NCBI GenBank assembly: GCA_008632985.1
Contig: QPGO01000004.1
Location: forward strand, 620,001-684,000
Length of the DNA: 64,000 nt
Direction of reading: 5' to 3'
From: Psammoneis japonica
Taxonomy: Eukaryota
Shown here one piece after another: positions 3,460 to 43,338 of this stretch. The notes under the pieces are model-generated. The model was not told the DNA's origin. It saw only the letters and a list, made by a program, of their open reading frames with translations, and ran no database searches. Position 1 is the stretch's first letter. Every line of letters starts with the position of its first letter. Both the position numbers and the translations under genes were made by a program.

Positions 3460-3752
3460 TGTTGTAGCGTCCGCTTTGTTGTTCCAACGAAGAATGGCAA
3501 CGCATCATCAAGAATTCGTTCCGTTGCATTCATTGCAGAAAAGAAAGAACAGCAAGGAACGAAAAACAAAAAAATGAGGGTGCGCCGCACATTGAATCAT
3601 CCAGAATATCTTCAACTTGAACCTCCTGACAACAGACAAACACCAAACAAGAGGAAAAAGGACGAAAATAGTAATTTCGACAATTTCCGAATTTCGACAC
3701 AAAAATGGTTGATTTCGACCTAGCTCTCGCTCTCACCCATCACAAATTCACT

Positions 3753-6097: not shown

Positions 6098-7663
<1,566 letters not shown>

Positions 7664-11513: not shown

Positions 11514-11921
11514 AGGCTCTGTTCTCGTCCAAAGTATTAGTTTGAGTTGTACTCACTCCAGCGTAAGACCCTCCAAACAACAAACAACTATCTTTGCTCT
11601 TCTCTAATCTTCTCATGTTTTACCTCTAGTAGCTAGACTTACCGGCACTGAAGAGCGAACTGTTTGGATGAGAGACGGACGCATGTTTGTTGTGGCGTGG
11701 CGTGGCTAGGCATGCTTTATATTTCATATTTGTACATGAAGCAAGATAATAGAAGTTATTTTTATACATCATTGAAGATCAATGAATAGCTAATATTTTC
11801 GAAATTGGGAAGGGAAGAGCTTTTCCGCGCCGAGATCATTTTTCCAACACAAACATCAATGACATGTTCATGTTGAATGTTGTTGCTACGCTGCGCATCA
11901 CTCATACCGTAATAAGTTTTC

Positions 11922-13418: not shown

Positions 13419-13644
13419 GGCCCTAGGGACTTTGTGTGAAGTTGTGGCGTATTTGGGGCTGTCCATGGGTGGCATGTGCAGCTTGTGTACGATACATAAT
13501 CCTTGGCATTTAGAATTGTTTGTGTTGAAATGTTGCAAAATTTGCGTCGTTCTTTTTTTTCTTTTTTTTTTTTAAAGCAAGACAGTCGGTCACAGAGCTG
13601 CTGATGGGTGTCATTGAAGCGTCTGGATGTTGCAACTTTTATAA

Positions 13645-14437
13645 GTTGGTGAAAGGCAGGATTCGCAACTGGACAAGAGACGCCACCAGCCGGACATCGA
13701 CTGAGGAAGTGTCGGGCATTGGGAGGGATCATCATGTCCATGCACGCAAAATGCTTGTGAGCACTGTTGATCAACTTCCTTGAAAGTGACTTGGTCTCTC
13801 TCAATTGGTTTGAGTCATTGCTTGGACCAGGTTGTGAACAAGTGATCCAGAGGAGCCACACTGTCCAACGGCCATCTTTGGCCTGTCAAAACAACCCGCA
13901 GCTGGAAACCCATGTGCCAATGACAAGCACAGCAGGGCCCACCATGATGGGGTTCCTTTGCCACACATGGCATGACAGGCACTCGACACTGAACACCTCT
14001 TGTCTTTTTCTTTCCTGTCTTTTGTCTCTTCTCAAATGGAGTCTGCTGGGGGGTGGGGGNNNNNNNNNGGGGGGGGGCAAGCAAGGTGCTGGCATTGCAT
14101 GACAGCAGTGTGTGGCATGCAGCAAGGCTCAGTGCCTTGGCACACTCACACAGCTCTTCACTGTTTTCAACACCAAGCTGAGAAAAATGTCTCTGGCTTG
14201 TTTTTGTTGTGTTGTGTGCATGGCATTGCTGTGGTTGTGTCAGAGGGCAGCCAACTTGTGCCCAGAGAGCTTTGCAACAACACAGTCATTTCAAAATTTG
14301 CTCAATGCCAGAAGAGTCAAAAACATGCTCACACACACACTCAAAATTAGATGCTGCACATGTGCCACACATTCATGCACCACATTTGTCTTTTCACCAG
14401 CTTTCACCACCATTCCAAGAATCGCTGCAGATCTCTT
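13645..14437. mobile_element. Degenerate repeat, left part of the older sequence into which the copia inserted (contains assembly gap 14060-14068)
   Basis: TpA- and CpG-poor with no credible gene. A weak piggyBac-like peptide (QHNKNKPE, cf. QYNKxKP) occurs on the minus strand. Family uncertain. Confidence 0.45.
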
Positions 14438-14713
14438 TGACAGAAATTGAAGGCAAATGGCAAGAATTCAAACAACAACTCCTTGCTGCTGTCTAAATGG
14501 CAGATGAGTCTCCGCTCAGAGACCGTTGCAGGAGCCGAAAGACGTGCAAGTCGGTGTGATCGGGCTGCTGTCATTGTTCTTGTGAGCCTTGTGGCTCGAA
14601 AGCAAACTGCATCGCACGCGAACGCGCGGAACTAAAGCACACAAAACTGTGCGCGGCAAACTAAACAGCGCGCGACATTTCGTGCGCACCTGAATCCTGT
14701 TCAAATCCTGTCA
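14438..14713 (-). repeat. 3' LTR
   Basis: TGACAG...CTGTCA termini. Direct repeat of 21269-21544 with 13 substitutions by manual alignment. Confidence 0.96.
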
Positions 14714-14724
14714 CTCCCCAGTTT
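14714..14724 (-). other. Polypurine tract
   Basis: The minus strand reads AAACTGGGGAG immediately before the 3' LTR. Confidence 0.7.
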
Positions 14725-17700
14725 GCTTGAGGAGTCACAGAAACAGATTCGACTTCGGATGAAATGAAGTTCCAGAACATGAGGGGGCAGAGAAGGTCCC
14801 AGATTTGGGAGCAACCCCAATGCTTGCTGAGGATGTCAGCAGGGTTGCGGGAGCCTTCGATGAAGTGGAACTCAAGGCAACCAGAGGCAATTGCCTCACG
14901 CACACGGTGGAACGACAGTGCGGTGTGTCGCTTGTGTAACTTGGAGTGCGGGATGGTGGCACTGTCTACAACTGACTTGTTGTCACCGAACATGCAACTG
15001 ACATTACGGATCGGGACGCCAAGGTGGCGCAGGGTGATGTGCAGGTCAATGATCTGCTCGACACAAGTCCTTGCGGCAACAAATTCAGACCCGCAGGTCG
15101 CAGTCTCCACGGTGGCTTGCTTCTCAGAGAACCAATCAGCCGGGAATTTGTTGAGGAAGTGGAGCATTCCCATGACAGAGCGTCCGGTGAGCATGCAATG
15201 GCACAAGTTTGCATCGACGTAGTGGGTGGCAGTGACGAACTTGCCAAGGGGCAGTGGAGCGTCCTTTGGGATCATCTCTTCTGCTTCGCCGTACATGGAA
15301 TGCATCCATTCACAGGCTGGAGCAGGGAGATCCGAATGGTCGGGCTCTTCCGTGCGAACGCGGAGAGCACCGTGTCGCATCTTGGAGAGGCACCCACAGA
15401 CGCGTTTGGCACGATCCAAGTGGCCTTGACGGGGTGCAGCTCGGAAGCTAGAGAGTGACATGACGGCCGTGGCAATGTCAATTCGACCAAGGGACACTGC
15501 CCATTGGAGTGAACCAACAAGAGACTGGAACTTGTGAATGCCATCGGGTCCCAGCAGTTCGGAAGTGTCCAGTTCGGGGTGGTCACCCTTCTCCAGAGGT
15601 GACAGGGCGTTGGTGGCAGGTTTCTCCCCAAACAGTCAGGCGCAGCTGTCGACCATGCGCTCGATGTACTTGCGCGGAGACAGGCACAAGGTTCCGTTGG
15701 GATCCCAGGAAAAATCGCAACCCAGATGGAACTCAATGGGTCCCGCACCCTTGAGCTTGAACTTGCACTTTTCCGTGAGAGCATCGACGAAAGATTGAGG
15801 GTCCTTCATGGCAGTGGCGAGGTCATCCACACAAACGGCAATGTGTTCACAGTGGTCGCCGTTCCTGCGCATCCAAATGTCGGGTTCGGCGCGGCAGGGG
15901 AAGAAGCCTTCAGCTCGCAGGCAGTCGGCGAAGCGCTCGTGCCAGCGGAGACCGGAGCTGCACAGTCCATGCAGGGCCTTGTGGATGACAAGGATGTGTC
16001 CTTCGAGTTTGCCAAATTTGGGTCTGGCTGCAATGTAAAGCTTCTCCTTGGTGGTGGCTTCAAGGCAGGCATTGCCAATGTTGGTGGCCCATGTCTCCAA
16101 CTCGTTGAGTTCGGCCAGGAAAATCATCAGCCGAAGGCCACGGAGGGAGACCACTCCTGAGTAGACACCATCGACAGGTGCGTCCGTGAGGTGCCCGTCG
16201 GCTACGAGTCGTGCCTTGTGGCGACCGTCGTGTTTCACATCGTGCACTGGGTGCACTCGGATCTTCTTGTGTCCCACAGGAGGAGTGGAAGACTCGAAGG
16301 GCCCGCAGTCATGGAAGACTTTGCATTCGTCGAGTTGGCCCATCTCGAGATTAGTTGCGTCTCCCCATTTGCGGTTGCCGTTGCGTTCGTCTAGTGACAT
16401 GGCGTGTTTGTAGTTCCGGGGAACTTTGCATCCGCACTTGTGGCGAGGTGCAGTGTGGAAGGAGCAAAGCTTGGCTTGGTTGGCCATGCGAAATGGCTTC
16501 TTTTGGTGCCTCGCGATGGTGCGGAACCGCTTCCAGCCATCCGTGTCGAGGAGTCCGTTCTCTCGTGCATAGATGGCGCAGGTGACGGGGTCGTCCTTGG
16601 CGATGATGGCAAGAGGCTCGGACGTGATCTCCCCACTTTCCCATTCAAGCATGATGTTGTAGCTTGAGCCTTTCCAGGTTGGGTCATGAGGCTTCAGAGG
16701 TCCTTCGTGTGACACGATGCGTCGAAATTTCCAAACAGTGGTGTCTTCGTCTTCTTGCTCAATGTGATTCATGATGTCATTGCAGGCAAGGACTTCCTCG
16801 TGTTCGTCGTTGTTGACAGAGCAGACGAACTTAGTGAGCTCGGGATTGCCGTTCACTTTCCATTCATGGTCTTCGACGGCCTTGACGATGTGAGCTCTGT
16901 GGCGTTGTCCATCCTCTTGTGGTGTCCTGATCTCCCCATCAGGAGAATCGATGGGGTTGTCGTCATGGCGAGATTTGATGATGGGTTCAGGTGGCTCCCC
17001 ATCAGGAGGATCAAGACGCAGGTTTCGAACGGCAGGATCGGTGGCAGCGGAGCGGATGTTGGATCGGTGGAGGATCTTCTGAGTCTCGTCAGAGAGAATC
17101 TTGAAGGTCATCTGGTGGCCGACGTGCTCAGCAATGCCAACGAAGCGTCCACGCAACTCATGGGATTCGGACAGCCAATCGGAGTCATCGAGGTGGAAGC
17201 ACACGGGTTCCCACCAGTGAAAGCGAAGCAATGGGCTGATGTCCGGGGTGGAGCCAGTGAGAGTCTCGAGGGGCGTGCGCCAGTGGAGACGTGGGGACGC
17301 TGTGTGGTTGAGCATGAAGCACACATGCATGAGCGCCAGCAGCCATGTGTGGGCGGGCGAACCAAAACGATCCATGACAGTGTTCGCCATGCGCTTCACG
17401 GTCTGGCATCGACGCTCGGCAAAGTTTTGGTGTTGCTGGTGAGGCTCACTTTGCCAGCTGGAGATGAAGAGGGCCCGCAGGATCCCGAGCACTTTGTTGC
17501 TGATCTCAACTTGAGCACGGTCGCCAATGAGTTTGGATGGGGCACCACGCTCACGGATCTGATCCTCGAGTGTGTTGACAAACTCTTTGTCTGTCTTGGT
17601 GCCGCAGACGTCAGTGACGGTAGACTCGGTGCCAACAAACAGTTGGGCACTGGTGCAACCAGAGTCGACGGCCAGGGTGTCGGCATGAACGGTGTCAGTG

Positions 17701-20326
17701 GCGACAGGCTCGTTGCGGCGGTGCACATTAAGGGCGGGATTGGGTGATTTGTAGGCCTTCCTAAGGTGTGCACCGGCGGGCATGCGGGCGTGCTGCGTGG
17801 TGCAGTCAAAAGTACGACGGACCGTGTCGGCAGGTGGGAAGCCAAAGTGAGGCCGAAGAGACTCGAAGGGCGGGTCCTTGGGCTGTGCATTGCGCTCCGG
17901 GGGCGGGACGTCGGCGTCCTTGGGGTCAATCGCGTGTGGGTGACACTCGTAGAACACGTCGTTGTTCGGAATGAGGTGATCATCGAGGGCGGACGCGTGA
18001 TCGGCAGACAAGGAAGCGGACATGATGGTCTCGTTGACAACGACACGATGACGGCAGTTGCTGCACTCGTCAAACAGGTTGGCAGTGGGATCGTCCTGTG
18101 GGTCAGAGATCGCGTCGTACCACTGGTCGTCATCAGTGACAGAGTGATCGAGGACGGAAGGATCCCATGTGTCATCACCGGTGAGGATGACATGGGGCAG
18201 GGTGTCCCATTCGGCGTCAGTGCAAGGTCGCATGGCAACATGAGGCAGGCCGGCCTTGATGTCAATGGGGATGACACAGCCACCAGGAGTGGCAACACGT
18301 TGCAAGCCGTTGGGCACCTTGACAGAGCGATCGTTGACATCCTGTTTGTGCCATTCGAGCTGGCCACAGGAATGGATGGTCTTGCCCTTGCCCGTGCATG
18401 CGCACTGATGGAGGATGGCGATGACGGGACCACGCTGGGTCTCAATGACGGCACCAGTGGTGACAATGGGATGTCCACCAATTGATGATCGTCAATGCCC
18501 TGAACGTCGACTTGGCAAGAGGTGCGTGCAATGATGCGAACATCGTCGCCAGCAATGCCGCCGTTGGCCCCACGATCGACTAGAGCGCCAGTGCGTGCGG
18601 AGCGATGAGCAGAGGCAGAGCAAATGACATTGTGGTTGTTGACGCGGCGGCAAGTGCGGCCGTTAAGTTCCATGTCATCGGCAGAAGCTGGCGGGGTAGA
18701 GGGAGTGGCGGATGGCCCCGGTCGACCAGCATTGGGGGCTTGGTTAGGAGACAACAGACGGTGCAGATCACCGGGTGGCAGTGGCTTGCGCTTGGTGAGG
18801 TGCGCCAGGATGGGATTGTCCGAAGTGGCACCCACATTTGGAGCGGAGTCACCAGAGTCAGCAGGAGTCGTGTTGGACAAGTTGACATCACTGACACTCC
18901 CAAGGCGTTGGTCGTGAAGGTTGGCCATAACGGACTCATGGCAGTTGCTGTTTCGCGGGTTACGGGGAGGCGGACGAGAATGCGCAAGGATGATCGCCTT
19001 GGAGGAATGGGGCAACGAATCCCAAATCCGTTGGTGGTCGGGAGGGAGACGTTTCCATTGGTCACCGGTGAGGCTGGGACCACGGGTGTGGGCAGCATTG
19101 GCTTGAAGGACGTCAATGTCACTGTCAATGTCGTAGAACACATCGTCGGACGGTTCCTCGGAGTGGACGTCGTGTGCGTGTGTGGCACGTCGGGGAGCTC
19201 GAGGTGTCGTCTTGGGTTGAAACGCACTGTCGCATTGGGCTGCCGCGGAGAGGAGCAAGCCACAGCATTGATCGCATGTGAGGCTCTTGCCACTCTGCGT
19301 GCGATGCTGATCAGCTTGGTTCTTGACAGCACGGAGTTCCTCGACAGGGTGCACGGCATTCTCGAGCATGACGCGCTTCTGTCCTTCAGAGAAGTGGTCA
19401 CTGGCCGGGATGAGTGCCTCGCACTTGCGCAACTGATCTTGCCAATGAAGGATGAACCCGTGGGTCGGACCTTCGCACTTGCGCAACTGATCTTGCCAAT
19501 GAAGGATGAACCCGTGGGTCGGACCTTTCCAAGCACCATCACCAAGATGTGCGGTGGCAAGGTGCATTGGCAGGGTGGAGGACTCGATGGATGCGCGGGT
19601 GGAGGCGAGCGCGCACTCAGACAAGGCGCGGCAGACGGTCTGTGCGTCAGAAGACCCCACATTTTCGCGGATGAGAGCCTTGCCCTTGTCGGTGAGAAGG
19701 ATGCGTTCGAAGACGGCGAACATGCACATTTGCTGTTCAGCAAAGAGCAGTTTGTCTTCGGGGCTGGTCGGTTTGTACGACGAGTCTAGAATGCACTCGA
19801 CGTCTTGGGCACGGGCTTGTGCCACAAGTGAGATGTGCCAAGTGTGCCACTGCTTGTCGGATTTGAGAGCCGTGAAAGCAGTGGGATCACGCTTGATGCC
19901 TTGCTTGAAGTCCCGCACTGGGTCACGTGCCTTGGTCGGGTTGGTGACATGCGGAGGTGCGAGGGGTGAGCTGCCAATGGACACAGAAGACATGCAGTCG
20001 GGGCTGAGGCGGCAGGCAAGGAACTCGTCATGCGCGAACAACGAGGAGTCATTGGCAACGTCAAGACCTTTGTGTGCTTTGACAATGCACAGACTAACTG
20101 GAGCTGCCAACATGTTCTTACAACCACGGGGCAAAGGGATCACATTAGCGCCGTTGTCGCACTCAAGCGAGTCGATTTGGGGCGGCATGAATGTGAACAG
20201 TTCTTGACACGAGTCCATGCCGTCTTGTGCCAAAGCCAAACGGAGAGGGCTCCCAGCACCTTGGGCAAGCACGGTTCCAACAACGTGCTCGAAACCATCG
20301 GTTTGTTGCTGACGAGTGAGAACCAT
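14714..20326 (-). pseudogene. Hypermutated gag-pol polyprotein
   Basis: Start MVLTRQQQ at 20326. Protease LVDRGANGG. Integrase ATDT..., GDRAQ and QNFAERR. RT KHDGRHKARLVA and CVDD (from YVDD). RNase H KQATVETATCGSEF and NPADILSKHW. One frameshift near 18469 and one TGA at 15636-15638. Confidence 0.93.
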
Positions 20327-21268: not shown

Positions 21269-21544
21269 TGACAGAAATTGAAGGCAAATGGCAAGAATTC
21301 AAACAACAACTCCTTGCTGCTGTCTAAATGGCAGATGAGTCTCCGCTCAGAGACCGTTGCAGGAGCCGAAAGACATGCAAGTCGGCACAATCGGGCTACT
21401 GTCATCATTCTTGTGAGCCTTGTGGCTCGAAAGCAAACTGCATCGCGCGCGAACGCGCGGAACTAAAGCACACAAAACTGTGCGCGGCAAACTGAACAGC
21501 GCGCGACATTTCGCGCGCACCCAAATCCTGTTCAAATCCTGTCA
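21269..21544 (-). repeat. 5' LTR
   Basis: Matches 14438-14713 and is followed by the TSD CTCTT. Confidence 0.96.
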
Positions 21545-21549
21545 CTCTT

Positions 21550-22510
21550 GATTTGTCATCTCTGCCTGTGATGTCTGCAGTGTGGCCACACCAGCATGTG
21601 ACAAGTGCAACACACATTGAGTGTGTTTCTTTTTTGATGTGTTCCAGTCCCAGGTGATGCATGCAACGACAATTCATTTTGAGTGCAAATTGTGCTCTTC
21701 TCATCTGGTGTGAAGCATTTTCACAAAAAAACACTTGAGCACATGGGCTTTTGTGGGTGTCCAAAGCATGGGCAGTTGGGTGGGTTTTTTGTTGGCATTC
21801 AATCCTCACAGACTCAATGCCAATTGTGCAACAGTGCATTTTGCATGGTGAAGCCTTCGCAGACAGAACACCTGCTGCTGCTGCTTCAGAAACATCACAC
21901 CAAAAAATTTGTGCCAACACATGTGCAAACATTCAAGAACACATGCAAGTCTTCAACATCATTGCAAAAAGTCATGTGTTGTGTTGCAATTCTTTTGTTG
22001 CAATGAAAAACTTTGATGGCGCCACAGAAACAATGATGTTGTGTGACACTGAGGCGAGTCTTGTCAGCATTGCAAAACATTGACACTTGGACAAACTCGT
22101 GCTTTTGGTGGCAAAAGCTTGGTCGCAAGTCAGAAACCACACAAAAGTTGAGCAAATGCCACATGTGATTTGGTTCACACATGGCTGGAACACATCTTTT
22201 GTTGCTGGCGCACTCTCTTTCCTCTTCTTTGTCTCACTTCGCTCCTGGCTGGGGGGCTTTCAAGAAGGGGCGGCACACACAGGCGGTTTCTCCAGCAACG
22301 TGAAAATTTGACTAAGACTGCAGAGACACAACAGCACTTTTTGGATGGGAGAAGTTTTGAGTCCTTGTGGGGTCACCTGGGTTGCAGCAGCAGCAAGTTG
22401 TTCGTCAGCTCGGCTGACGGTGTGGCAGCAAGCAGCAAACTGAGCCACGGTGGCCAAGCCAGCCATCACTTCTGGCAATTGACACAACCAAGATCAACAA
22501 GCCAGCGCCA
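21550..22510. mobile_element. Degenerate repeat, right part of the sequence interrupted by the copia
   Basis: TpA almost absent and CpG-poor. It joins the left flank at the TSD. No recognisable gene. Confidence 0.45.
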
Positions 22511-22841
22511 TCTACTCTAGCTAGAACAAGCAACAAGCACAAGGCAAGCAGCGCAAACGACAAGCGCAAACAGCAAAGTTCAAGACTGGAGGTCGACGAA
22601 CACCAGCCCAAGAGCCAAAGGTAGGAAACTGATGGCACAGAGCTTCGAAGAAGAGCCCGCAGAAACCTCCAGCTGACACGCGTAAAAATCTACGAACGGA
22701 CAGTATGCTTACGTCATGATTTTTCAACTGCATCCATCCGATGCCGACGAGCGACGAAGATCGACGACGCGACACAAATAATTTGACTCTAACAGAGGCC
22801 AACGTAAGCTCTCTTTTTATTGACTGAATACATCGCTGATC

Positions 22842-29859: not shown

Positions 29860-31429
29860 CAGTGTTCAGCGGGGTAGGGGGCGGAGAATGATGTCTCGTC
29901 GATCGAGTGATGAGGAGGAGTACTAGTCGTCTTCCCTCTTCCCCTCTTTTGTGTCGCCCTCAAAAAGGCAATGCCGCGCCACGTACGTCAGAACATACTG
30001 AGAAATGCGTGGAAAGTGACCTTGTGGTGACAATTATTGCCCCTGAGACGTGGCAAAATTGGGTGCAACAATGAATCTCGGTGAGGAACAAGCTGAATCT
30101 TCTGGCAGTCCTGCCGCACAGTGCTGCGTAAAGCGGTGTTGTGTGCTGCACTTTGACGTGTCACTCCGCTGGATTAAAAGTCAGCGGTGCATCCTCAACA
30201 AAATCTGAGACCTCGCACCTTCCAGTGCTCTCTGCTGATTGCTTCTCTGCCATGGATGACCTTTTCCCTGATGACCCCACCGAATGTTTTCTTGGCAACC
30301 CCTGTCGCTGAGCCCCTCTCCAAGTTTCTCTGCCACCCTGATGACCTCGTGCCTTCTCTCTGCCGTCCATTCCCACACCCCACTCTTCGACTCTGCCCGC
30401 GCCTTGTGCCCCCAAGACACCTCTCCTCTGTTCTGCTCTGCTGCCACCACAACTGTCTCCGTGCCTCCCTCTGCTGTTCCCTTCCCCATTCTGCACCACA
30501 GGCTCTTCACAGCTCAACATCTTGAAACAGATGCTCGTCTGCAGAGACGAGAGCTGTCATTGAGAAAAGCCATTGCTCTGCTGGCAGAGCTGTGTTGGCA
30601 TTTGTCAGCAGCCCTGTTGACATTGTTTGACAAAGCTTTGGAGTTCATGGTCATGCTCTCCTCTTTTTCTGCCAGCAGCACAGAGTGCCCAGCAGCACCT
30701 TCCTTTTTGCCGTGCACAAGAAGCACTGCAGCGGAGCACAGTGGGCTGCAATGGGCACCCCCTTGACTGAGTCCGGGGCACAAAAAATGGTGCAGTGATT
30801 TTTGGCTGTGCTGTGTGGCATGGTGCACTGTTCAGCCCCAGCAAATTAATGTCAACAAAAGGGAGTCTTGCCTTGCTGTGTGTCAGGAGGCTTCCTGCGC
30901 TGCTTCGCACACTTGCCTTGGCAGTGTGCGTGCAATGGCCATGGGTTGCCAAAGGTGTCAACATGCAAACTGTGAACTTGTGCAATGACAGGGGCCTGTT
31001 GATGCCAAACAATGACTCCAAAGAGTGAGATGAAAAAAACAAAGGTGAAAAATTAGAAACTGGCAACGGCAAAAATTTTCTTGCAACCAGTCACCCGTCG
31101 CCCCTCACCAGGAGTCAAAACATCTTTTCTTCACAACCCATCCCAGTTTTTTTATGATTCTCATGGTCCAGATGTTCCAACAACTTCTGCTGCTTGCATC
31201 AATCATGTCACACCTGAGCACCTTGCATCCAGGGAAAACTGATCTCCCTGTGGCGTGGCAACCACAACGCCGCCAGACACATCTGTTGCTTCAGCACTGA
31301 CATCCTGCAAATCACAAATGTGCAGGTTGGCACACAATCCATTGTCAGAGCAATCAACCATGTCATCAAACAAGCATGCTGCACCCAATGCACACTCCAC
31401 AAAATGCTCTGCATGAGTGCGATGAGTTC

Positions 31430-32070
31430 TCTCTCTTGCAGCTGTGCTGTCCAAGAACTCCACCAACTCATCAAAGGCATGGTCCAAAATTTTGAAACTT
31501 TGCAGGGTTGACTGGCATCACCATTGATGAGGTGCAAGATTGCAGATGACATCACAGATCCAGGCTCTGCTTGGACTCAAAGAGCAAACAACACTTGAAA
31601 TCTTTGTTGACTTCCTCCATCCAAGCCATGATTTCTCAGATCTTTGTGGGGCTTGGCTCCTTGAGAACACATTGCAGATGCCGCTTCTGACTCTGAAGTG
31701 CATTCTCAGGAACAGTGTGGTTGGAGAGGCAGTGCTGCCATTTTTCAAAGGCTCCTTTGTCTTCAATGTTCATCACCTTGTTCTCAAAAACTCACAGAGC
31801 ATTCCCTTGCAACATCATGTGCACAAGTTGGAACTTGTCACCGGCTTGTTTCTTGACACTCTGGCCCACCACAACTTTGCTGAATGTTTTTAAAAATTTG
31901 ATGTGCTTGGGAACTCTCTGCTTGTCATGGCACTCAACATTGATCATGTGGGCATGACTCTTCTTGTCTTCTGGATGAAAACACTGCTCCATCTTGAGAC
32001 GTTGGCTTGGTTTGAGCATCTTTGGCTTGGAAATCAACTCAAGTGGCATGGAGGCAATCTTCTGCTTGAT
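31430..32070 (-). mobile_element. Ty3/gypsy-like gag remnant
   Basis: Fragments KFQLVHMMLQGNAL, FPENALQSQKRHLQ and DHAFDELVEFLD resemble gag proteins of diatom gypsy-type elements. Recognised by motif recall, not by a search. Confidence 0.5.
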
Positions 32071-32549
32071 GGTGTGCTTTGTGGCAGATGCTTGAGGTGA
32101 AAGCTTCATTTTTGTGTTTTTGCATTTTGCAGTGTGCACACACAATGCACTGTGCTTGAAGAATGAGTGCAAACCAATGAAAGCAGAGCAAATCACAAAA
32201 AGTGGAAATCATGAGATTGGATTTTGCTCTGTGATTTTGGGTTTCTCCAAATGAGTTCTCAATGCCCCCCAAGCATTTGCACTGCTTTCACAGAGCAAAA
32301 GCCTTTTGAAAAATCTGGTCATTGCAACAGATTGTCTTGATGTGACCAATGTTGACATCTTGTGTGTGAACATTGTCTGTCAATTGTGTTTGCAATTTTG
32401 GACATCCAATCAATTCTGTGTGATCAATCTGACCTTCTCACACATCCTTCACAATTGTCACATGACTGACATGTGCATCAGTGTGCAACTGCAAACAAGT
32501 GCAATTTCTTCTGCTCAATGATGCTTGTTGCCGCTGCACCTCTGATCAA

Positions 32550-32776
32550 TCAAGTTACATGTGGACACATCATTCATGGTGCAACCTCAGAGGAGGAGTT
32601 TTGAGCATGGGCAATGGAGCAGTGCAGAGGCTGTGTCAAAACACCAGAAGCTCAACACCCAAAGCAGCACAGAGGCTGAACCCACAGAAGTCAATGACAC
32701 AATGACCATGATTCTGTGGACAAAGTTTTTCATGGATCATCAGGGGCATCCAATTGACAAGAACAAAATTGTTTGA
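32550..32776 (+). mobile_element. Ty1/copia RNase H fragment
   Basis: HVDTSF...SKHQKLNTQSSTEAE...ILWTKFFMDHQGHPI. Confidence 0.85.
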
Positions 32777-33359
32777 TCCAACTGATGCCAAGTCTGATGC
32801 CACCAACAAGTCTTGCTCCAAAACCAAGGATGGATCTCACCGTGGTCCCAAAAATGGTCATCAATCTGGCATCAAGTGATCTGAGTCTGACAAGTGGTGC
32901 AATTGTTGCAAGAAAACCACTCACAACATGGACCAGTGTTGGGTCATCAAAAGACTGGCAAAAAAAAGCTTGGAGAACACTGAACAAAACCTGAAACAGC
33001 AATTTTCAAATGGAAGTTGCACGTGGTGCTGTCATCATGATGCTCTCAAAAGGAAGAGTTGTTGAGTGCCATGATCACTCAGCCAGTCAACAAATCTCTC
33101 ACCAAGACAAGTTCCTCCACAAAGATTCAGAAGTGCAAGAGTGAGGAACATGACTCAGACACCCTCAGTGAGGAAACCCATCAGTTTGAAAAATGACTTG
33201 CAGTGATTCTGAGGAATGACTGGCACTTGCAGAGGAGTCTTGTGCATTGTGGGACATTGGGGAGCCCGGGAAAGGGCTGGAGCAATTCATGCCAGTCCAG
33301 TGGTCATTGCTCACATGAGTGCTTCCTTGGGAAAGGAGAAAAATGAGCATCTGGGCTGC

Positions 33360-34385
33360 ATGTTCTTCTTGACAGTGGAACATCATCAACCACAATTCTG
33401 CACAAGTTCACGGCAAAGTTGAGAAATGAGAAATGTGCTGCCAAGACTTGGGAAACCAAGGGTGGGTTCTTTGCAACTGACAGCCAATGCTCAGCTCAAT
33501 TCTCACCGCCTGAATTTGATGAGCATGAGTTCATTAAGAAGACGGCACATGTTGATGACACACTGCTGCTTCTTCAAGACATGACATGATCATGCGACAT
33601 GACTTGATCAGCATGAGTTGATTGGGAAGACAGCACATGTTGATGACACACTGCTGCTTCTTCAAGACATGACATGATCATGGGACATGACTTGATCAGC
33701 AGTCATGGAGTCACACTTGGTTTTGCAAATGAAGAAAGCAAATGGGAAGATGCAGGCGCACCAATGAAAAATGCCAACACAATCTTTGATGCCAAATTGT
33801 TCAAGCTGAGTGCTGATCACATTTTAGAATCTCACGCTGTGAATCACCTCAATGACAGGATCCAAAAAAAATCCTTGATGCTGACTGCCATGCTGCCAAA
33901 CTCAACAATGTGACTGCTGCAGCAACACATCTGACCCCAGAGGAACAGAAGCAACCAAACTTTCTCCTCAAAAGATTGGAACCTCTTTTTGATGGTTCTC
34001 CAGGTGAGTGGACAAGGAAGCTGGTGGATCATGATAAAAGGTGTGTTGTTGTCACACCCGAATTTCAGCACGCCCTTTGAGACATGTGCTGATGTGAGCA
34101 ATTCTCAGTTGGGAGTGGCCACAATGCAAAACAGCAGTCCTGTTGCCTTCCACAGCTGCAAGTCAAATGGAGTGCAGATGTGACACCCTGTGACAGAAAA
34201 AGTGCTTCTGTCCACATGTGTGTGTGGATCACAAAAATCTCACCCATGAGAATTTCACAATGGACAGAGTCATGTGTTGGCATCTGATGGTTGAAGAATG
34301 GCTGCAGCTCCAAAGTGATCTGTCTCAAGGGTGACAAAGCCAACGTCATTGCAGATGCAATCAGCTGGCTCACTGTGAAGGAAAT
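33360..34385 (+). mobile_element. Ty3/gypsy pol remnant (aspartic protease and RNase H; RT largely deleted)
   Basis: Protease LDSGTSSTTI, WETKGGFF and RHDMIMGHDL. RNase H LLSHPNFSTPFETCADVSNSQLG...PVAFHS, DHKNLT and NVIADAIS. Confidence 0.8.
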
Positions 34386-34994
34386 GGACACTCTGTGCAG
34401 CATTCCATGCACGTGCTGCACAGAGTGGGAGAAAAGATCTTGCTGGAGAAAGATTCTCAAAAATTAGAACAGCTCTGTGCCTTGTGCTGGGCCTCATGAG
34501 ACAACAACGGCACACATGGCACCGTGCTGTGCAGATCAAATGTGGTGATGTCATTGACACTGTCAACATCAGTTGAGCAGCTCCATTTGTCAAATGACCC
34601 CAATGTGCAATTGAGGAGGTGAGTGCAGCATGTGTTGCTGAGCATGCTCATGTTCACAACTGTGTGTTTTTGCACAGCGTGTGTCAATCATGCAACAATC
34701 ATGGATGTGCGCAAAGGTCATGTCAATCCCACAGAATTGATCAAATGTCCAAAATTGCAAACACGATTGATGGACAACTTTGACACACATGACATCACTG
34801 TTGGCTGCATCTGGACAATCTGTTGCCAATGTCAGATTCTCTGAAAGGCCTTTGCTCTGCAGGAGCAGTGCAAAAGCTTGGGCCATTGAGAGCTTGTTCA
34901 GAGAAACCCAAAATTGCACAGCAAATCCAGTCTCACAATTTCCACTTTTTGTGATTTGCTCTGCTTCATTTGCACTCATTCTTCAAGCACAGTG

Positions 34995-37900
34995 CAGAGG
35001 TCCTTTGTGCTCAGCATGGTGACTTCCTTTTGTGTCCTGTTCAGGTGCTTGACACAACAGAGACCAGCTTTCCCCAGTCCTTGTTGGTTGGCTTTCTGAC
35101 TTGTGTGAACCATGCTGCAAATGCAGGGTGCACATCCACAGCCTCTCTTGGACACAAACAGTCCCTTGGCCACCCACCACACAATGTGGAGCATCATCTT
35201 TGCTTCATCAGCTGGCAATCTCATGCAGCTGGTGTCAAGTGGGTTCTCTCCAGCTGGTGTCATGGCAGCATCTGCAATCTTGATCTCTTCCAGGAGCTGT
35301 TCAGTCATGTTGCAAATGCTGTTGGTCATGCAAACTTTCTTCACCTTGCCCTTGGGGCTGAAGTCCAGGACCATTGTGAGGTGATCATGCTTCTTCCTTG
35401 TGTTGCAACAGCTTCACCATGGCTTCCACACATCTTGTCAAGCCAGCTTGGAATTTTGTCATTTGCTTTTGGGTTTAACATGGCTTGACAGCAGGTCATC
35501 TACATGGAAATGTGTGGCACGCCACTTGCCATTGACTGCTTGATTGGCAATGTGCAGATTGTGTGGGTTGAATTTGACCCCAATTTTTTCTAAGTCCTTG
35601 CAAAGTTGCTTGTGCCGCAGCAGAGTTGTGACCAACATGCCACACACAGCTCCAATGTCTTGGGTGCAGAGGACTCTCTTCCCCTTTTCCATGACCACAT
35701 GTGATCCACACAGGCCAGGATTGATGCTGCTGACATGTTGACCAACACTCGTGCAATCTTCATCATGAGTCAGTCTTCACCCTCCTCAGGTTCCAAGGCT
35801 GGTGTCCAAATGAATGTGCTTGGCACAAAAGCATTCATCACATCACATGCTCTTCTTCTGTGGTGTCAACCATGGCTGTCATCAGCATTCCTTCCAATGA
35901 TGTTGTCAGGCTGGCTGAGTTGTCCTTGTCCAGCCATTCTCTGGTCAGTTTTCCATTGCAGACCGCCTGCCCTTTCACACAACCATCTTGTTTCTCCACT
36001 GGGGACATCCAGGCAATCACAGCCTTGGCCCTCTCAGTTGGAGTCATGTCTTCAACTGACATTGGTGCAAAGCACAACCTGTCATGGGGTTGTCTGATCT
36101 CCTTCTCCGAAGCATCACACCCTTTCTGGTCAAATGCTTTTGGGCCTTCATGCAGCAAATGCTGCTGGGCAAAGGAAATGCCCTTTCCTCCCAATTGGAG
36201 TCAGCCCTCAATCTTGCACATGAGTTGTGCCAGTGCTGTTGCTGCTTCCATGTCATGCTTGATGTTGTCCTCTGGGTTGGGACACTCATGTTCATTCACA
36301 AGTGGTGACAGTTTTTGAGTTTTGCGGTGTCTGCTGTGGTGTCTGCCACTCCCGCAAATTGAACTTTCTTCCCTTGGCATGTGTTCTTGTGTTTCTGAAT
36401 GTGTGCTGTGGTGTGGAAGGCTCTGCCAGACCTGGTCCTCCCAGCAGCCAGTCATGTCCATTGCCTCATCTGCTGGTCTTTCTGCTTCCCATCTTTTGAC
36501 TTCTTGGCATTCATTGTCTTTGACTCTCCTCACTCTTTGCCACCCTTGTTTTCTTTGGCATTGTTGCAGCCATCGCACCCCTTGTCCTTGATTTCATTGC
36601 TCTCATGCTGTTGATCAGGGCTGGATCTTTCATCCACTGGGATCTCATTTGCTTCTTTGCACTCTTCACAAGAGTCCCTGCTTCATCTTTGCTGTCATCA
36701 TCTTCTGAGTCAGTGATGATGTTTCTGGTTTCATCTTCATTTTTCTTCATTTGCATCTTTGTCATCACTTTCATCTTCATTGCTTCCCACCCCTGCAGCC
36801 CAACCTGCGCTGCACAGGTTGTCTCTGTGTTTGCCTTTAAATTTAAAATCTTTGATCCCTTGTGCTGTGGCTGTCTTCTTGACTGCCCACATGTGTGTGT
36901 TGGTCAGGGGTGTGACAGTGGCCTGCACTTGCAGGGATTCAGAAACTTGTCCATGTGCAGGTTCATGGTGCAGTGGCTGCCCTCAGCAATGTCAAAGCAT
37001 GGTCACAGACACATGCTGTCAATGCCATGCATGTCCAGCATGGTGTTTTTCAGGTTGTTCTCAATGTGAGGCAGGACAAATTTCCCAAAGGCAAACTCAA
37101 AGTGCTTGTCACAGTCAAGGTTTCTTCATTGCACAACAGTGGGTGTGGACTGAGCATGTCAGAAATTCCTTCTTTCTGTGGGTGCATCTTCAACACGGCA
37201 GTGACATTGATCATGGTGTTCTTGTGCATCAACTTGGGTGTCATCTTGCAAGGCAGATGGTGCACAGTGGCTTGAGTTTGCTCTTTGTGGGACTCAATGC
37301 TCCTCTCAACTTCAGGAACATGGTCCTCACTGTTGGTGTTCATGGACATCAGTTCCAAGTTCACACCATTGGCAACTTCTGCCAGCATGTCCTTGAACTT
37401 GGGATCACACTCAACAAAGTCAATCTTGAACAAAGCCATGTTGTGCTGTTGGAGGATCATGTCCAGCACATCAAACACATCAACATGCTTCTTGGACCTC
37501 AGTCTCACACTTGATTGGCACTCAATCATCTCATGTGTTGCACGCAGCACCCATGCAGCACCTCAACTCCACATGTTTCCATGGGATCAATGCAGAGGAT
37601 CATACCTTCTCTCCTCTTCTCATGTGTTCAAGGTGGGATGGCTGCAATGTTGCTCCTCTCATGGGAGCAATGTGCCCGCTTGGTCTGGCTTTTTAAAGCA
37701 TCTGTTGGTGGACCCCAAATGGCCACCATGCTGTCCACATCTTTGGGTGTGATGGACAACTTCTTCACCTGGGTTGAACACAAAAATGACTTGAACTCCC
37801 TCACACTGGGACTTCCAGGAGCCTTGCAGCATGGTCTGAGAGTGCTTGCTCAGTGCTTGCTGCCTCTCTCTTGGTGCAGCCCATGGAACTCTGTTCCATC

Positions 37901-39200
37901 ATCAGAGCCACAGTTCCAGATGCACCCCTGTGCTTCTTGTTTCTCTTTTTCTTGACTCACTTTCTTGGAGATCTTTTGCATTGTTGAAGAATTCCTGGGT
38001 TGGCACAAAAGCATGTGGCCCAATGCCATTGACTCTGAACACTGCGACTTGTTTGCCAGTCTTCTTGTCTGGCAGCCACAGCTCGTCCACCACTCAGCTG
38101 GCATGTGTTGCACAGCATTTGCTCTTCACATCCTTTGAACTGAGAATCTTTGCCATCACATTCTCTGATCCAAACTTCATGTCTCCCCATCCAGGCATGG
38201 TGCAGTCCTTGTCTGGGGCATCCACTCCTGCACTCATGGGGATGGACCAACCCCAAACCCCAACCCTTGCCAATCAAACATTGTGCACTGGTCTCTGGCT
38301 GCTGCTGCGCTGAGGGTGGAATCGTTGTCAAGGATGATCTCTTCCATCTTGATGCCCACACTGGCTCAGCTCATGCTTGTCTCTGGTCTTTCATTTGCCA
38401 GTTGCAACCCATGCCATGCAGTGCTCCTGATTTGCCTGGAGCAGGTTGATTGGTCAGATCTGGCAGTGTCAACACTCATGTTGTTGCTGTCCACTGATGA
38501 GTGGTCATCATTCCCAACATGTGTTTGTGCATGACTCTGTCCCTCAATGTCCAGCTTCCCTCAGGCATTCTTGATTCAATTGTCACACGCAATGTCTTTT
38601 TGATGCTGCTTGCAGTCCAGGGACTTGTGGCTCAGTTTGCCACAACAACAGCGACACACCACAGCATCATTCTGGCTGCTCTTCTCTGAGCATGGCTCTG
38701 GTCCTTTGTGTTGTCAGACTGACAGTTGTTCTTGTCATTGTTGTTGCCATTCTTGCCATCTCTTCCTTTGTTTTTCTTCCTCATGTGCAAATTGCAAGGG
38801 TTGTTGTCTTTCAGACAGTTCAGCAATGCAGCCATTGCCTCCTCAGCAGTCATCTAAAATCTTGGCAAACACACATGTCTTGCTCTCTTTGAACTGCTTT
38901 ACTTTCTCATGGTGGTCACTCAGCTGTGCTTTGTGCTTGAACTCCAGCTCCTTGTCCTTGTGCTCTTTCTTTTGCAGAGCATCCCAGCAAACTTTAGCTG
39001 TTGTGTCTGATGGCACAGTTGCTTGTCCCCTTCTGCCACACTCACCAAGTGCACTGGAAGTGTGGGTTGGCTGGCACCAGCGCAGCCAGCAAAGGAGTGA
39101 CAGCATTTAAAAATTAGAGCTGTCATTTTTTTGTGGCACAGTTGCTGCGGGTGCTTTTAAGGTGGGTTTTTGGGATCAAAATTCTTGCATTTCATGTCTT
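34995..39200 (-). mobile_element. Old degenerate Ty1/copia element (gag-PR-IN-RT), different lineage from 14438-21544
   Basis: Protease IILDNDST (~38330). Integrase EDHVPEVERS (~37310). RT KQDGCVKG...NGKLTREW (~35960) and FHVDDLLSSH (~35500). Many frameshifts. Confidence 0.85.
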
Positions 39201-42200
39201 CTAAAGAACTTGCCATGTGCACACCATGTTCGTGCTCCTTCTGCATGCAACAGACAATGATCTTCTCTTTGACATCTTCTCATGTGGCATTGCAAGGAAG
39301 TGTTGCTGTTCAGTGATGAAGGATGGAGCTTCATCTCATGCTGAAATGCTTCTCAGTGTTGGTCTTCTTCTTTGAGTTAGATTGCCTGTGCCTCTTGTCA
39401 CCTCTGCCATGACCACAACTTTGGCCTCTTCGTTGTTTGTTCTGCCACCTCCTCTGCCACTCAGTGTGCAGGCATTCAGTGTTCAACTGACTGTGTGCAG
39501 GCCAGCACATGAAAGCACTGAGTGCAGCACCAGAGCCACTTTTTGGAGAGTGAATGTTGAGCCAGCAAGTCAATGCAACCAAAATGGAATCCTCTCAGGC
39601 TTCCTGCACCACTTGAAACACTTGCCTCAGTGATCTGCAATGGCTGTGGGTTGCCAAAGGTGTCAGTGTAAACTGCAAACTTGCATGACGACAGGCACCT
39701 GCTGATGCTGAATGACAAATTGTGCAAACCAAATGAGGGCTCACTCCAAGGAGTGAGATGAAAAAACAAAGGTGAGAGGTTGGTGATGGCAAAGCTTTTC
39801 TCACAACAACAAGCCACCCAGCAAACCATGTCAGAAGTCAAACATCTTTTCTTCAACCCACCTGAGTTCTTTGTGACTCCCATGATCTGGATGTCAAAAC
39901 ATGCCCACAGAAGCATGTGTCTGCTGCAAAGGACAGCAGAGCCTTGAGATGAGAGAAAACTGGCCTTGTTGACTTTTTTGAAGTTTTTGCAAAAAAGTGG
40001 AGAAAAAGGACTTTCTGGTGGCACAAAAAATTGTCAAAACTGGGAGTTGTTGTCAGAGAAATTGCCCTCTGTTCCATCTGTTAAAAAAACTTTTTCTGCT
40101 TGGCTCTGCACACAGCTCTCATGCACAAGGAAAATGTGCATCCGCCAACCTTGGCACAACCATGGCATGGCACATTTGGGTTGATTGCCGCTGAGGCTTG
40201 TGGTGTGAAAGTTGCCAACACACAGCATTCAACCAAGACACAGTGAGAGCAAATTGTTGAATGCAGCACAGGCTGTGCTCAAGGCATGCTTTGCTGATTT
40301 GCTCAAAAGCTTTTCCAACAATCAACAATGAACTGCCTGCTTGCACTGCCAGGAAGGAGCTTTTTCTTTCTCTTGTGATTTGCTGGTGTTGTGTGTTGTG
40401 GCACAGCTGTGCAGCATGCTCCACGCAAGGTGGCGCATGAGCACAGCTGCCATTGCACTTCATTGTCATGGGATGGATGCACTCCAGCTCTGGGTGGGAC
40501 CCAGAGTGCTGCTGAACTGTGACACTGATGTTTTTTGTTGTGTGCCACATGTCATGCAAGTGCATTTCCACATGACTTTGGTGGAACTTTGTGTCATTTT
40601 GCAGTGCAGTTGTTGAGCAATCCATTCAACAACTGACTTTTGACAGTTTTTTGTGCAAAGCCATTCTTGAACATCTGCAGAGTGGTGCAGGGTGCAGGGC
40701 AGGGCAGATTTTCAAAAACTTTGAGTGTGCAGAGGCACAAATGCACTGCAAACTTGGTCATTTGTTCGTGTGTGTTGAAGACAAACATGCCCAGCATTGA
40801 CAGAGTGCACAGTGCAGAGATCACATGCAGAACTCTGCAGGCCCAGAAACTTTTTTTCAAAAAACTCAGCTCCATTCTGTGTGGTGGGATCAGTTGATCT
40901 CGTGCTTTTTGCACAGGGCTTTTTGCACCTTCCCACTCAACAACAGTGCTCTCCCTCCGAAAAGTCCACACAGCTGCAGCAGCTCACCTGCACACACTGC
41001 TTTTTCTGTTGCAAATGTTGCAGCATCAGATTGTGTCAGAGGCTTGTCGCAAAACATGCACTTTTGCACCCTTCGCTGGCTGTGTTTGTCAATCATTGCA
41101 TTTGCTGTCACTGTCACTGCTCACAAACTGGTTTTGTGTGCACTGTTTTTGCCTTTGTCTTGAAAGGGCTTTGGCGCATGCTGCTGCTGCTGCTGCTGCA
41201 GCATGAACCTGCTCCATTGTCAAGCTGGGGCAATGTTGACTGCAAGCCATCTCAATGCCCAAGAGAGTGTCTTGTGTTTTTTGCTGAAGGAGCTGATTTT
41301 TCAGCAGCAGATGTGCATTGCATGTCTCTGGAAGACACCAGTGTGGTCAGGCACAAGTTCAAAGGATGCAAATGCAGGAGGTTCGTGCTTTTCCAAAGCA
41401 AAGTCCCCAGAGAACAAGGGCTTTGCCAATGCTCAAATTCCAGCAAAGCAAGGCTCTGGCACAGCTTTGTGAACAGGAGCTGGCAAATGGCATGAACCAA
41501 GCCACCAGCACTGATGCCAGAGACAGTCTTGTGTCACCCCAAATGCAATGAATGTTGTGTGTGAAAGCCTTTTTCAGTCAGCTGCCAGAGCGCATCAGGC
41601 TCCATCATGGTTTTAGATGCTTGCAACTGTTGCCAACTGCCTGTGCTTGTCAGGAGAGAGGAAAAACAACCAAACAACACTTGCCAGCAACCCACAGCAG
41701 ATGTCTCACACAAGTTGTCAACGACCCCCAGAACAACATCCCCACCATTCATGGATGCAATGGATGCTGCCTGCATTCCTCTGCTTCCTGCTTCTGACAG
41801 ACCCTGTTTGCACACCACTTTGCACAATCTTTGGAGCTTTTCTTCCACTTTCACCTGCTGTTTGGCTCTTTTGTCAGCTGTCAATCACATGAAATGTGCA
41901 AGCGCCATTGTCCTCAAATGTCGACTTTTTGCTGTGCAGCCATTTCAGAATTTCAGCCACAGTTTTCACTGGCAATTTCACAGCATGTGAAACCACTGTC
42001 CAGCAACAGAAATTTGGTGGAACACTTTGCACAGCAATGCACACATGTGTCTGTGGCAGCAACCTGAGCAAGAGCCTGCCACTTGCTTCATGTGGTGAGC
42101 AGGCTCCACATCAACTGTCAACCAAGTGGAGCTCAAATTGCTTGACAATGTCCTCATGCAGCCCTTGTGTTTTGCCCCATTGTTTGGGCACAACAATGGA

Positions 42201-43338
42201 GCAGTTTCACACTGCAACAGCATGCCAAAACCCTTTCAAGACAAAGTGAAAAAACAGCACACAAACCAGCTTGTCAGTGGCAGTGGTGACAACTGCGAAT
42301 GAAGCGATCGACAAACACAGCAGATGGCACACAAGTGAGTTTTCATGACAATCAGGGTTTTTTGCATTGACCCTTTTTTAGTGTGGTGATGGGCTGCCTT
42401 GCCTCCCTCAACTGATGCCACAACAGCGTGCACAGAACAGAGACAGTGCGAGCACAAAAGGTGAGCCGCTGCAACTGCGGGTGTGCCAGAAAGGGGGGGG
42501 GAGTTTTGTTGTCAAGTGAGAAGGTGCAAAAAGCCTCATGTAAAAAGCACAATGTGTGTCTGTCCATTCTTCATGTGTCTCCACAGAAAAATGGTGGGCC
42601 GAAAGTTGTTCATGTCACACGGAGTTCCAGAACGCGTTTGCGGCAGCACCGCTTTTTGTTGGGGCACCTTTCGATGATGGTGCACAGCGGTGATGTGGAG
42701 ACCATTGCAGTGGCCTTTTTGCATGAAAAAAGAGAGAACCGATTGAGGTGGAGGCCGGTGTGAGGCTTTTTTCTCATCCATCCGAAGGTTTCAGCTGTTG
42801 GGGGGTTGTGGTCGACGGGGGGGGGCAAAAAATGAAGGGCAGCAATCGGGTGTCAACAGAGTGTCATCGCACCCTGACACTCTGACACTAATGCTTAACA
42901 GCAGTTTTCTTCCCAATTAAGAGTCCTAATGATCTTCGAAATTTTTAATTAAAAATAATATTGTGTATGAATTTAATATTACATTCGCTCATGTTGAATT
43001 AAGAATTGACGCCAAGGTCAGTATGTTTCCTACGCTCCTCACACGTACTTCTTGTCTCGCGTGCGTCACACTTATTTCCATTTAACGCGCGAAAAATGCC
43101 GCTGAGCGAATCAATCTGTCGCACAGAAATACGCATCGGATGCATCACTCATTTTTCTTGACACCGCCTTCTGCCCAACGCGACACTCACGAATCATGAT
43201 CGGAACGAGAAAGCGAGCAGCCGAATATTAGTTTCTGTGACATTCGTGTCAGTAGCAGCAGCCAATCACGGCTGGGGCGACGGGAGTTCGGCGTCACTTG
43301 TAATCACATCCCATTTCTTCACCACAGGAACACCGAAA

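Follow-up and report, generated by a model that had tools for sequence, protein, structure and literature searches.

Transitions at TpA and CpG in a Ty1/copia retrotransposon of Psammoneis japonica point to mutation after integration

A Ty1/copia element of 7,107 bp lies on the minus strand of a 64,000-nucleotide stretch of the Psammoneis japonica assembly GCA_008632985.1 (contig QPGO01000004.1, positions 620,001 to 684,000; referred to here as the window, with positions counted from its first nucleotide). The element is bounded by two 276-bp long terminal repeats (LTRs) and by CTCTT duplications, and its two LTRs differ only by transitions in pyrimidine-purine (YR) dinucleotides. We propose, with a probability of roughly 0.72, that the element inserted recently and was then altered after integration by transitions at TpA, the main process, and at CpG, a slower one, both of which end in TpG or CpA. 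The changes run from TpA or CpG to TpG or CpA, occur on both strands and are specific to individual copies of the family. The features that define the insertion are as follows.

14433..14437, no strand: left target-site duplication CTCTT, identical to the 5-mer at 21545-21549.
21545..21549, no strand: right target-site duplication CTCTT, matching the left 5-mer.
14438..14713, minus strand: 3' LTR, 276 bp with TG...CA ends, from the repeat pair; oriented by the minus-strand open reading frames.
21269..21544, minus strand: 5' LTR, 276 bp, from the repeat pair.
14544..14692, no strand: span of the LTR mismatches, which lie at 14544, 14555-14558, 14567, 14575-14576, 14616, 14663, 14683 and 14691-14692, with partners at +6831.

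The repeat finder returned a single direct repeat pair with a start-to-start distance of 6831 and 95% identity, the limits of which were set by trimming to TG...CA ends, and the repeat search found no second LTR-like pair anywhere in the 64-kb window. Since a matching 5-bp duplication, CTCTT, stands on both sides, the LTR pair derives from a single insertion event. The LTRs are 95.29% identical (4.71% divergence), with 13 mismatches, no indels and no transversions. The original prediction, made from the same DNA, had described 276-bp LTRs at an offset of 6831 that differ at 13 positions, all of them transitions in TA, TG, CA or CG, three being CG versus CA or TG. We recovered the same counts and positions, including all 13 transitions and the three CG sites counted by dinucleotide class, and located in the sequence every example string that it quoted. 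The mismatches occupy 13 of the 144 positions in YR dinucleotides and none of the 132 elsewhere (Fisher p = 2e-4). By dinucleotide pair, they comprise four reciprocal TG/CA sites (14555/6, 14557/8, 14575/6 and 14691/2), three sites with CG opposed to TG or CA, and two with TG opposed to TA (14566/7 and 14662/3). At all four reciprocal sites the plus strand reads TG in the 3' LTR and CA in the 5' LTR. For comparison, 80 related metagenome loci yielded seven LTR pairs, of which two were long and diverged enough for use, and the spectra of these two were ordinary (L015, 11 transitions, 5 transversions and 2 indels; L053, 68, 33 and 21, respectively).

Because inherited or RNA-level changes pass into both LTRs from one template, the LTR differences must postdate the copying of the LTRs. 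The claim that each LTR was mutated independently after integration is supported on the same ground, as both LTRs carry derived states and their differences could not have been inherited from one template. That dating by the LTR divergence of about 4.7% would overestimate the age of the element also holds, given that none of the 132 non-YR positions differs. The TA dinucleotides that survive in the LTRs (14494, 14633 and 14662, with partners at +6831) are all in a CTAAA context. A CTAAA-like site at 14691-14692 is altered in both LTRs, so there is no clear sequence rule for the surviving TA.

The reciprocal sites could in principle derive from either TA or CG, as had been claimed, and we compared the two origins in a model in which sites mutate independently in each LTR, to TG or CA with equal chance, and in which double hits ending in the same state are invisible. 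A CG origin has to accommodate 19 unchanged sites, three single hits and four visible double hits, and fits poorly (log-likelihood of -10.6 for CG). With a TA origin there are two unchanged sites, two single hits and four visible double hits, corresponding to about 10 ancestral TA, a loss of 70% per LTR and a CpG loss of about 7%. The total log-likelihoods are -6.7 for the TA origin and -11.9 for the CG origin, a likelihood ratio of about 180. At a CpG loss of 0.07-0.15 per site, only 0.06-0.29 visible reciprocal sites would be expected, as opposed to the four seen (P from 7e-7 to 2e-4). The modelled TA loss of 70% per LTR agrees with the loss of conserved tyrosines inside the element (14 of 18, see below). 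Under this model, an ancestral TA rather than CG is the better supported state of the four reciprocal TG/CA sites.

The direction of change inside the element was read from its pol frame, aligned with 60 homologs, in which 344 columns with at least 80% agreement were taken as conserved. The copy in the window deviates at 35 of these columns, including eight changes of Tyr to Cys and four of Tyr to His (TAY to TGY or CAY). From the codons at the deviating columns, two changes of Ser to Gly and one of Thr to Ala are also TA to TG, the preceding base being T, and about 10 more columns are of CpG type (Arg to Cys, His or Trp, Pro to Leu, and cG to cA at first codon positions). Conserved Tyr columns are altered in 14 of 18 cases, and those of any other residue in at most 4 of 29. 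The share of tyrosine is 0.9% in the window protein and 4.0% in the homologs, with Cys and His elevated. In the alignment with the intact homolog P0005, 8 of 58 Tyr residues are kept, and 24 are replaced by Cys and 15 by His, whereas the maxima among all 80 metagenome relatives are 2 Tyr to Cys and 8 Tyr to His. Both strands are similarly affected, judging by the 24 Tyr to Cys and 15 Tyr to His changes (binomial p = 0.20), and the two kinds of change show no structure along the element (Fisher p = 0.19, runs z = 0.53).

Among 120 homologs from other data sets, three show the same pattern. P0068 retains 2 of 17 conserved Tyr (8 are His and 5 Cys), P0083 retains 9 of 22 and P0105 9 of 19, the rest being mostly His or Cys. 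Across the 80 metagenome loci the observed/expected (o/e) ratio of TA ranges from 0.33 to 1.0 and none comes near the window; the lowest, L065, has the highest share of Cys and His at Tyr positions (0.35). On these protein and locus comparisons, the TA-loss process seems to be present in other organisms too (P0068, P0083, P0105 and L065). We also considered whether miscalling at modified bases could by itself be the cause and judged this unlikely, since P0068, P0083 and P0105 come from other data sets and share the pattern.

Other copies of the family were surveyed in contigs of a public run (X1) and three small runs (X2-X4) of the same sample, mapped onto 14100-21200. The element is matched by 13,269 X1 contigs, whose variants comprise 378 transitions and 39 transversions, with YR-dinucleotide transitions at 37 of the 40 variant places listed (of 424). 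Summed word depth is about 43,000-125,000 in the element and about 270,000-330,000 on the LTR, compared with 58 in the unique flank (bin 14100-14336); this depth is not a copy number, and we read it simply as an indication that the family is very abundant. Codon 887, a Tyr that we take to be the tyrosine of the reverse transcriptase (RT) motif YVDD, reads Cys in the window copy. The codons at which the window, the family and the homologs can be compared are given below, the family values being shares of depth.

Codon 887: window TGT; family 86% TAT; homologs Tyr in 114 of 116.
Codon 750: window CAC; family about 60% TGC, 29% TAC and 11% CAC; homologs Phe in 70 and Tyr in 49.
Codon 694: window TAC (kept); family 53% TGC; homologs Tyr in 84 of 117.
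Codon 883: window CAC; family 78% CAC and 22% TGC, with no TA-bearing contig listed; homologs Tyr in 111 of 118.
Codon 475: window CAC; family 80% TGC and 20% CAC, with no TA-bearing contig listed; homologs Tyr in 58 and His in 25.

The second type of change is also visible among the copies. At nine places (15707, 16019, 16025, 16082, 16427, 16456, 17057, 17161 and 17173) the window alone has TG or CA, and CG is present in at least 89% of the family depth. The CG majority at these nine places encodes the conserved residue of the homologs, which is the pattern of methyl-CpG decay, with CG in the family and TG or CA in a single copy. Taken together, the variant places at copy level and the homolog consensus indicate that both the TA to TG/CA and the CG to TG/CA changes are specific to individual copies.

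The composition of the element is in line with these changes. In its interior the o/e ratios are 0.15 for TA, 1.35 for TG, 1.56 for CA and 0.86 for CG; in the LTRs they are 0.19 for TA and 1.1 for CG, and 19 CG are common to both LTRs. The flanking comparison DNA has TA o/e ratios of 0.55 and 0.40 (genes about 0.4-0.97), and the GC content is 57% in the element versus 48% in the flanks. Three further parts of the window are depleted in TA and CG.

13643..14437, no strand: left flank patch, with 1 TA left (o/e 0.02) and 10 CG left (o/e 0.20); single-copy by word depth.
21550..22512, no strand: right flank patch, with 1 TA (o/e 0.01) and 16 CG (o/e 0.30).
30176..42888, no strand: TA- and CG-depleted block of 12.7 kb, the core of which (31-42 kb) has 1-6 TA and 2-9 CG per kb, versus about 40 and 55 in genes.

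Since the CG o/e of the two flank patches (0.20-0.30) is far below the 0.86 of the element, the element landed in an older, stripped patch of about 1.75 kb in total. A spread of TA loss from the copia element into its flanks was rejected, as the flanks are CG-poor as well. An assembly gap of nine N lies at 14060-14068, 370 bp left of the element.

The 12.7-kb block is, apparently, the end state of the mutation process seen in the element. At 32-42 kb its o/e ratios are 0.01-0.09 for TA, 1.66-2.21 for TG and CA (about twice the expectation) and 0.04-0.17 for CG. Its boundaries are sharp, and at each end the TA-poor zone extends roughly 0.4-0.7 kb past the CG-poor zone. No Pfam family was found at E ≤ 0.001 in 16 of its open frames, and a lone Pfam match at E = 0.049 was dismissed as chance. 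A protein-atlas comparison gave weak integrase leads only (0.85-0.91), and a tblastn search with 120 homologs returned no copia pol fragments outside the element (0 of 173 high-scoring segment pairs). TG and CA show no run structure in the block (z = -0.16); in the copia interior there is a weak excess of alternation (z = 2.39), and the controls vary equally. The block also contains two tandem 88-bp units at 33516-33691 that are 93% alike, and an inverted repeat (32268-32447 and 34703-34882) of 180 bp, 76% complementary, with arms 2,255 bp apart.

The remaining parts of the element, all on the minus strand, are listed here.

14714..14724, minus strand: likely polypurine tract, purine-rich, the sense strand ending GGGGAG, adjoining the 3' LTR upstream; identified by eye.
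14661..15635, minus strand: C-terminal part of pol with the RNase H region, assigned by homolog alignment; a 324-aa open frame, different from that of the RT part.
15621..18470, minus strand: pol region, an integrase-like part followed by the RVT_2 reverse transcriptase, from the RVT_2 profile and tblastn of P0005 residues 630-1596.
18464..20287, minus strand: gag-like N-terminal region in a frame other than that of pol, from tblastn of P0005 residues 15-631.

The RT domain is of copia type (PF07727, RVT_2, E = 3e-21, residues 738-948 of a 951-aa frame), and it occurs together with direct TG...CA LTRs and a 5-bp target duplication, as in Ty1/copia elements. Neither the gag-like region (18464-20287) nor the 14661-15635 frame has a Pfam match, and the element frames gave no match to an integrase profile at E ≤ 0.001. 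The stretch upstream of the RT aligns over its full length with homologs, and its integrase label is our own reading. The alignment of the full-length homolog P0005 covers 20287-18464 in one frame and 18470-15621 in a second, and the C-terminal part of pol (14661-15635) lies in a third, with the change at about 15636. These frame changes may reflect a defect or, alternatively, the usual organisation of the family. An extra G after 18467, near the gag/pol frame change at 18464-18470, is present in all X2-X4 contigs and in 4% of the X1 depth. In the gag-like region, a 54-bp tandem duplication at 19418-19473 encodes an 18-residue peptide twice; X2-X4 contigs skip it, and it is thus absent from some copies.

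The closest relatives from protein searches are at most 63% identical in pol and the metagenome loci at most 68%. Nearly all relatives are metagenomic, and the best named match is from the diatom Fistulifera solaris. A neighbouring RuvB-like 2 gene (6098-7663) has its best named matches in Attheya, Eucampia, Ditylum, Thalassiosira and Skeletonema, at about 75-81% identity. On these similarities the host is a diatom and the element a diatom copia-like retrotransposon. Other host genes in the window encode a MYND zinc-finger protein (11916-13418), a cation-efflux transporter (28687-29865), an amine oxidase (53553-55196) and a PPR protein (59814-61334). A FAD-dependent monooxygenase (FAD_binding_3; 55240-57646, minus strand) is split over two adjoining frames, probably by an intron or a frameshift. 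Long open frames overlap on the two strands of the element (plus strand 16713-17747, 17748-18485 and 18584-19789; minus strand 17396-20443); they fit a loss of TAA and TAG stops through the removal of TA and could be miscalled as genes.

The explanation that we favour would run as follows. A Ty1/copia element of a high-copy diatom family would have inserted recently. The dominant process would then have converted TpA to TpG or CpA, a change of A:T to G:C at the A of TpA on either strand, and about 70-80% of the TpA sites in this copy would have been lost to it. Acting separately on each LTR, it would have left the four reciprocal TG/CA sites and the two TA/TG sites. A slower change of CpG to TpG or CpA, most simply the deamination of methylated CpG, would account for the three sites at which CG stands against TG or CA. 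The changes in the LTRs most likely arose in chromosomal DNA rather than during reverse transcription. By analogy with the proposal made for the chlorarachniophyte Bigelowiella natans, the responsible enzyme may be a DNA adenine deaminase, and the host may direct TpA mutation at repeated or foreign DNA as a defence.

Several observations weigh against this explanation. The likelihood model assumes equal rates at all CpGs, and a few hypermutable CpGs could mimic its result. Among the places listed (40 of 424), the LTR variants in family contigs are 14556 G>A (34%), 14558 G>A (49%) and 14572 C>T (34%), and at 14572-14573 TA is present in 34% of the family depth, where both window LTRs have CA. 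These variants hint at TA-bearing copies, which falls short of proof, and those listed include no T>C at 14555 or 14557. At codons 883 and 475 the contigs listed include no TA-bearing copy, and part of the TA loss may come from source copies that were already mutated. By homolog consensus, the polymorphic place 17045 looks reversed, from TG to TA. Two transitions private to the window, 17739 and 21013, are outside the YR context, and at the listed places 17739, 19976 and 20035 no contig carries the letter of the window; at 20035 the window keeps CG, and all mapped contigs have TG. Finally, 8 of the 13 LTR differences are clustered within 33 bp (14544-14576), and a single conversion tract could have produced them.

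This clustering also bears on an alternative that would itself count against independent mutation of the LTRs, namely that the differences are not mutations of this copy and reflect either an assembly or polishing mosaic of a high-copy repeat or ectopic gene conversion into one LTR. We regard it as unlikely. Summed word depth in the element exceeds the value of the single-copy flank by a factor of about 730-5,600, with 13,269 matching contigs, both the TG-type and the CA-type states at 14556/14558 circulate in the family, and about 29% of the 31-mers sampled from 14200-15400 are absent in the best run, all of which would suit a mosaic. The contig across the junction of flank and LTR (14126-14463) nevertheless matches the window with no differences at single-copy depth, although the run may be the assembly's own source data. 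In addition, the depth that remains for the letter of the window is near the single-copy level of 58 at several places private to the window (about 66 at 16025, 36 at 17057 and 119 at 15707). The variation that would have been shuffled is itself made up almost purely of YR transitions, so a mosaic would undo only the argument from independent LTR hits, and the hypermutation would stand. We consider it quite improbable that methylated-CpG decay explains all the LTR differences, with the reciprocal sites derived from CG and the TA/TG sites being second hits or unrelated. Such decay is real in this copy, as the nine places with CG in at least 89% of the family depth attest; many metagenome relatives are CpG-depleted, with CG o/e ratios down to 0.10, and the LTR is CpG-rich, with its 19 shared CG. 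Decay of CpG only, however, predicts 0.06-0.29 visible reciprocal sites at a per-site loss of 0.07-0.15, where four were seen (P from 7e-7 to 2e-4), and CG remains at an o/e of 1.1 in the LTRs and 0.86 in the interior, compared with 0.19 and 0.15 for TA. It also leaves unexplained the loss of 14 of 18 conserved tyrosines and the TGT of the window at codon 887, where 86% of the family depth has TAT.

Editing before integration, on RNA or on single-stranded cDNA by an ADAR- or APOBEC3-like enzyme, was weighed as a further route to the same transitions and appears very improbable. In the orientation of the element, the four reciprocal sites read as sense A to G in the 5' LTR and sense T to C in the 3' LTR. 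During reverse transcription, deaminated plus-strand strong-stop DNA together with an exposed minus strand would yield just this strand pattern in the LTRs. The corresponding strand table (5/0 versus 1/4) gives a Fisher p of 0.048, a value that takes no account of the built-in opposition of reciprocal sites; all four would have the same direction by chance in 1 case in 8. Edits on RNA enter both LTRs and therefore cannot make them differ. Across the interior, moreover, the strands are about equally affected and without runs (24 Tyr to Cys versus 15 Tyr to His, p = 0.20; z = 0.53), and DNA in the window that is not copia has the same signature at saturation. The B. natans process was observed in resident single-copy DNA (bioRxiv 10.64898/2026.01.13.699255). 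Mutation of the integrated element at TpA, and more slowly at CpG, is the reading that we retain.

If so, the consequences reach beyond this element. As the 4.7% LTR divergence lies wholly at hypermutable sites, LTR-divergence dating fails in this genome, and for diatom transposons both the insertion ages and the "burst" histories would come out too old. With TAA and TAG removed and Tyr changed to Cys or His, dead elements keep very long frames, by which gene prediction and counts of "intact elements" would be misled. The process could be traced in any genome or metagenome by the natural read-out of LTR pairs and tyrosine codons. Should a natural TpA-specific DNA adenine deaminase be responsible, it would be of interest for research on genome defence and on base-editing enzymes.

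Known systems provide several points of comparison. Fungal repeat-induced point mutation (RIP) changes C to T, mainly at CpA, creates TpA and lowers GC. As in RIP, repeats are degraded here by dinucleotide-specific transitions after integration, which inflate the divergence of copies (PMC7296669; bioRxiv 10.64898/2026.01.13.699255). The signature is nonetheless opposite to that of RIP, as TpA is destroyed and GC is raised (57% versus 48%). Editing of the ADAR/APOBEC type prefers a 5' U or T beside the edited A and leaves clusters of transitions in retroelement copies, and the B. natans preprint considers it as well; its edits are confined to one strand and are in place before integration. Here, in contrast, both strands are affected and the two LTRs differ. 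The copy-private changes of CG to TG or CA, as well as the CpG depletion in the old block and in many relatives, resemble methyl-CpG deamination in silenced transposons. Such deamination, however, covers a minor part of the changes and does not explain the loss of TpA and of tyrosine codons. Parallel CpG decay is plausible because diatom transposons are CpG-methylated, according to passages of PMC9998398. The CoDi elements (Copia-like elements of diatoms; Maumus et al. 2009, PMC2806351) are likewise Ty1/copia-type elements of diatoms, and a term search of that paper returned no passage on dinucleotide-specific mutation. Among the papers listed by our literature searches on diatoms combined with TpA hypermutation, RIP or transitions in LTR retrotransposons, and on TpA hypermutation in algae, there was no diatom report.

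The closest parallel is with B. natans, for which a recent preprint describes mutation-accumulation lines in which the mutation rate of two integrated viral regions is about 1,000 times that of the remaining genome (Mettrop et al., bioRxiv 10.64898/2026.01.13.699255). In these regions, 230 of 231 mutations were A to G or T to C, all of them at TpA; genes and clusters poor in TpA and rich in CpA and TpG were enriched in reverse transcriptase and DDE domains, and an ADAT2-like adenine deaminase was proposed as the enzyme (bioRxiv 10.64898/2026.01.13.699255). There are several differences between the two systems. The host here is a diatom, a stramenopile, and not a rhizarian, and the targets are an LTR retrotransposon family and a 12.7-kb block. 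Depletion is deeper here, with TA o/e ratios of 0.01-0.15 as opposed to 0.45 in the B. natans viral region. Changes of GC to AT are almost absent in B. natans, whereas CpG is lost in parallel here and its change to TpG or CpA is frequent, which we regard as a separate second process. The evidence here is comparative, and that in B. natans is experimental.

What is common to the integrated giant-virus and virophage DNA of B. natans, as described there, and to the element studied here is the change of A:T to G:C at TpA, with TpG or CpA as the product according to strand, as well as foreign or selfish DNA as the target, a rate well above the background and the depletion of TpA with enrichment of CpA and TpG. 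The restriction of A:T to G:C changes to TpA appears here in the losses of Tyr to Cys and His and in the family contigs that keep TA at codons 887, 750 and 694, and local TpA depletion coupled to CpA and TpG enrichment was found in both the element and the block. It is conceivable, although we hold this only tentatively and think it somewhat improbable, that diatoms possess a RIP-like, TpA-directed A-to-G defence, acting on DNA by adenine deamination and chemically opposite to that of fungi, which saturates integrated retrotransposons and other selfish DNA alongside CpG methylation and is shared with Bigelowiella. On that reading, the same system in diatoms and in a rhizarian would be old and widespread among the protists of the SAR group (stramenopiles, alveolates and rhizarians). 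We regard the hypermutation signature in this diatom retrotransposon as a further case of the very recently described TpA hypermutation; the known range of such targeted hypermutation, so far one rhizarian alga, would thereby come to include diatoms and retrotransposons.

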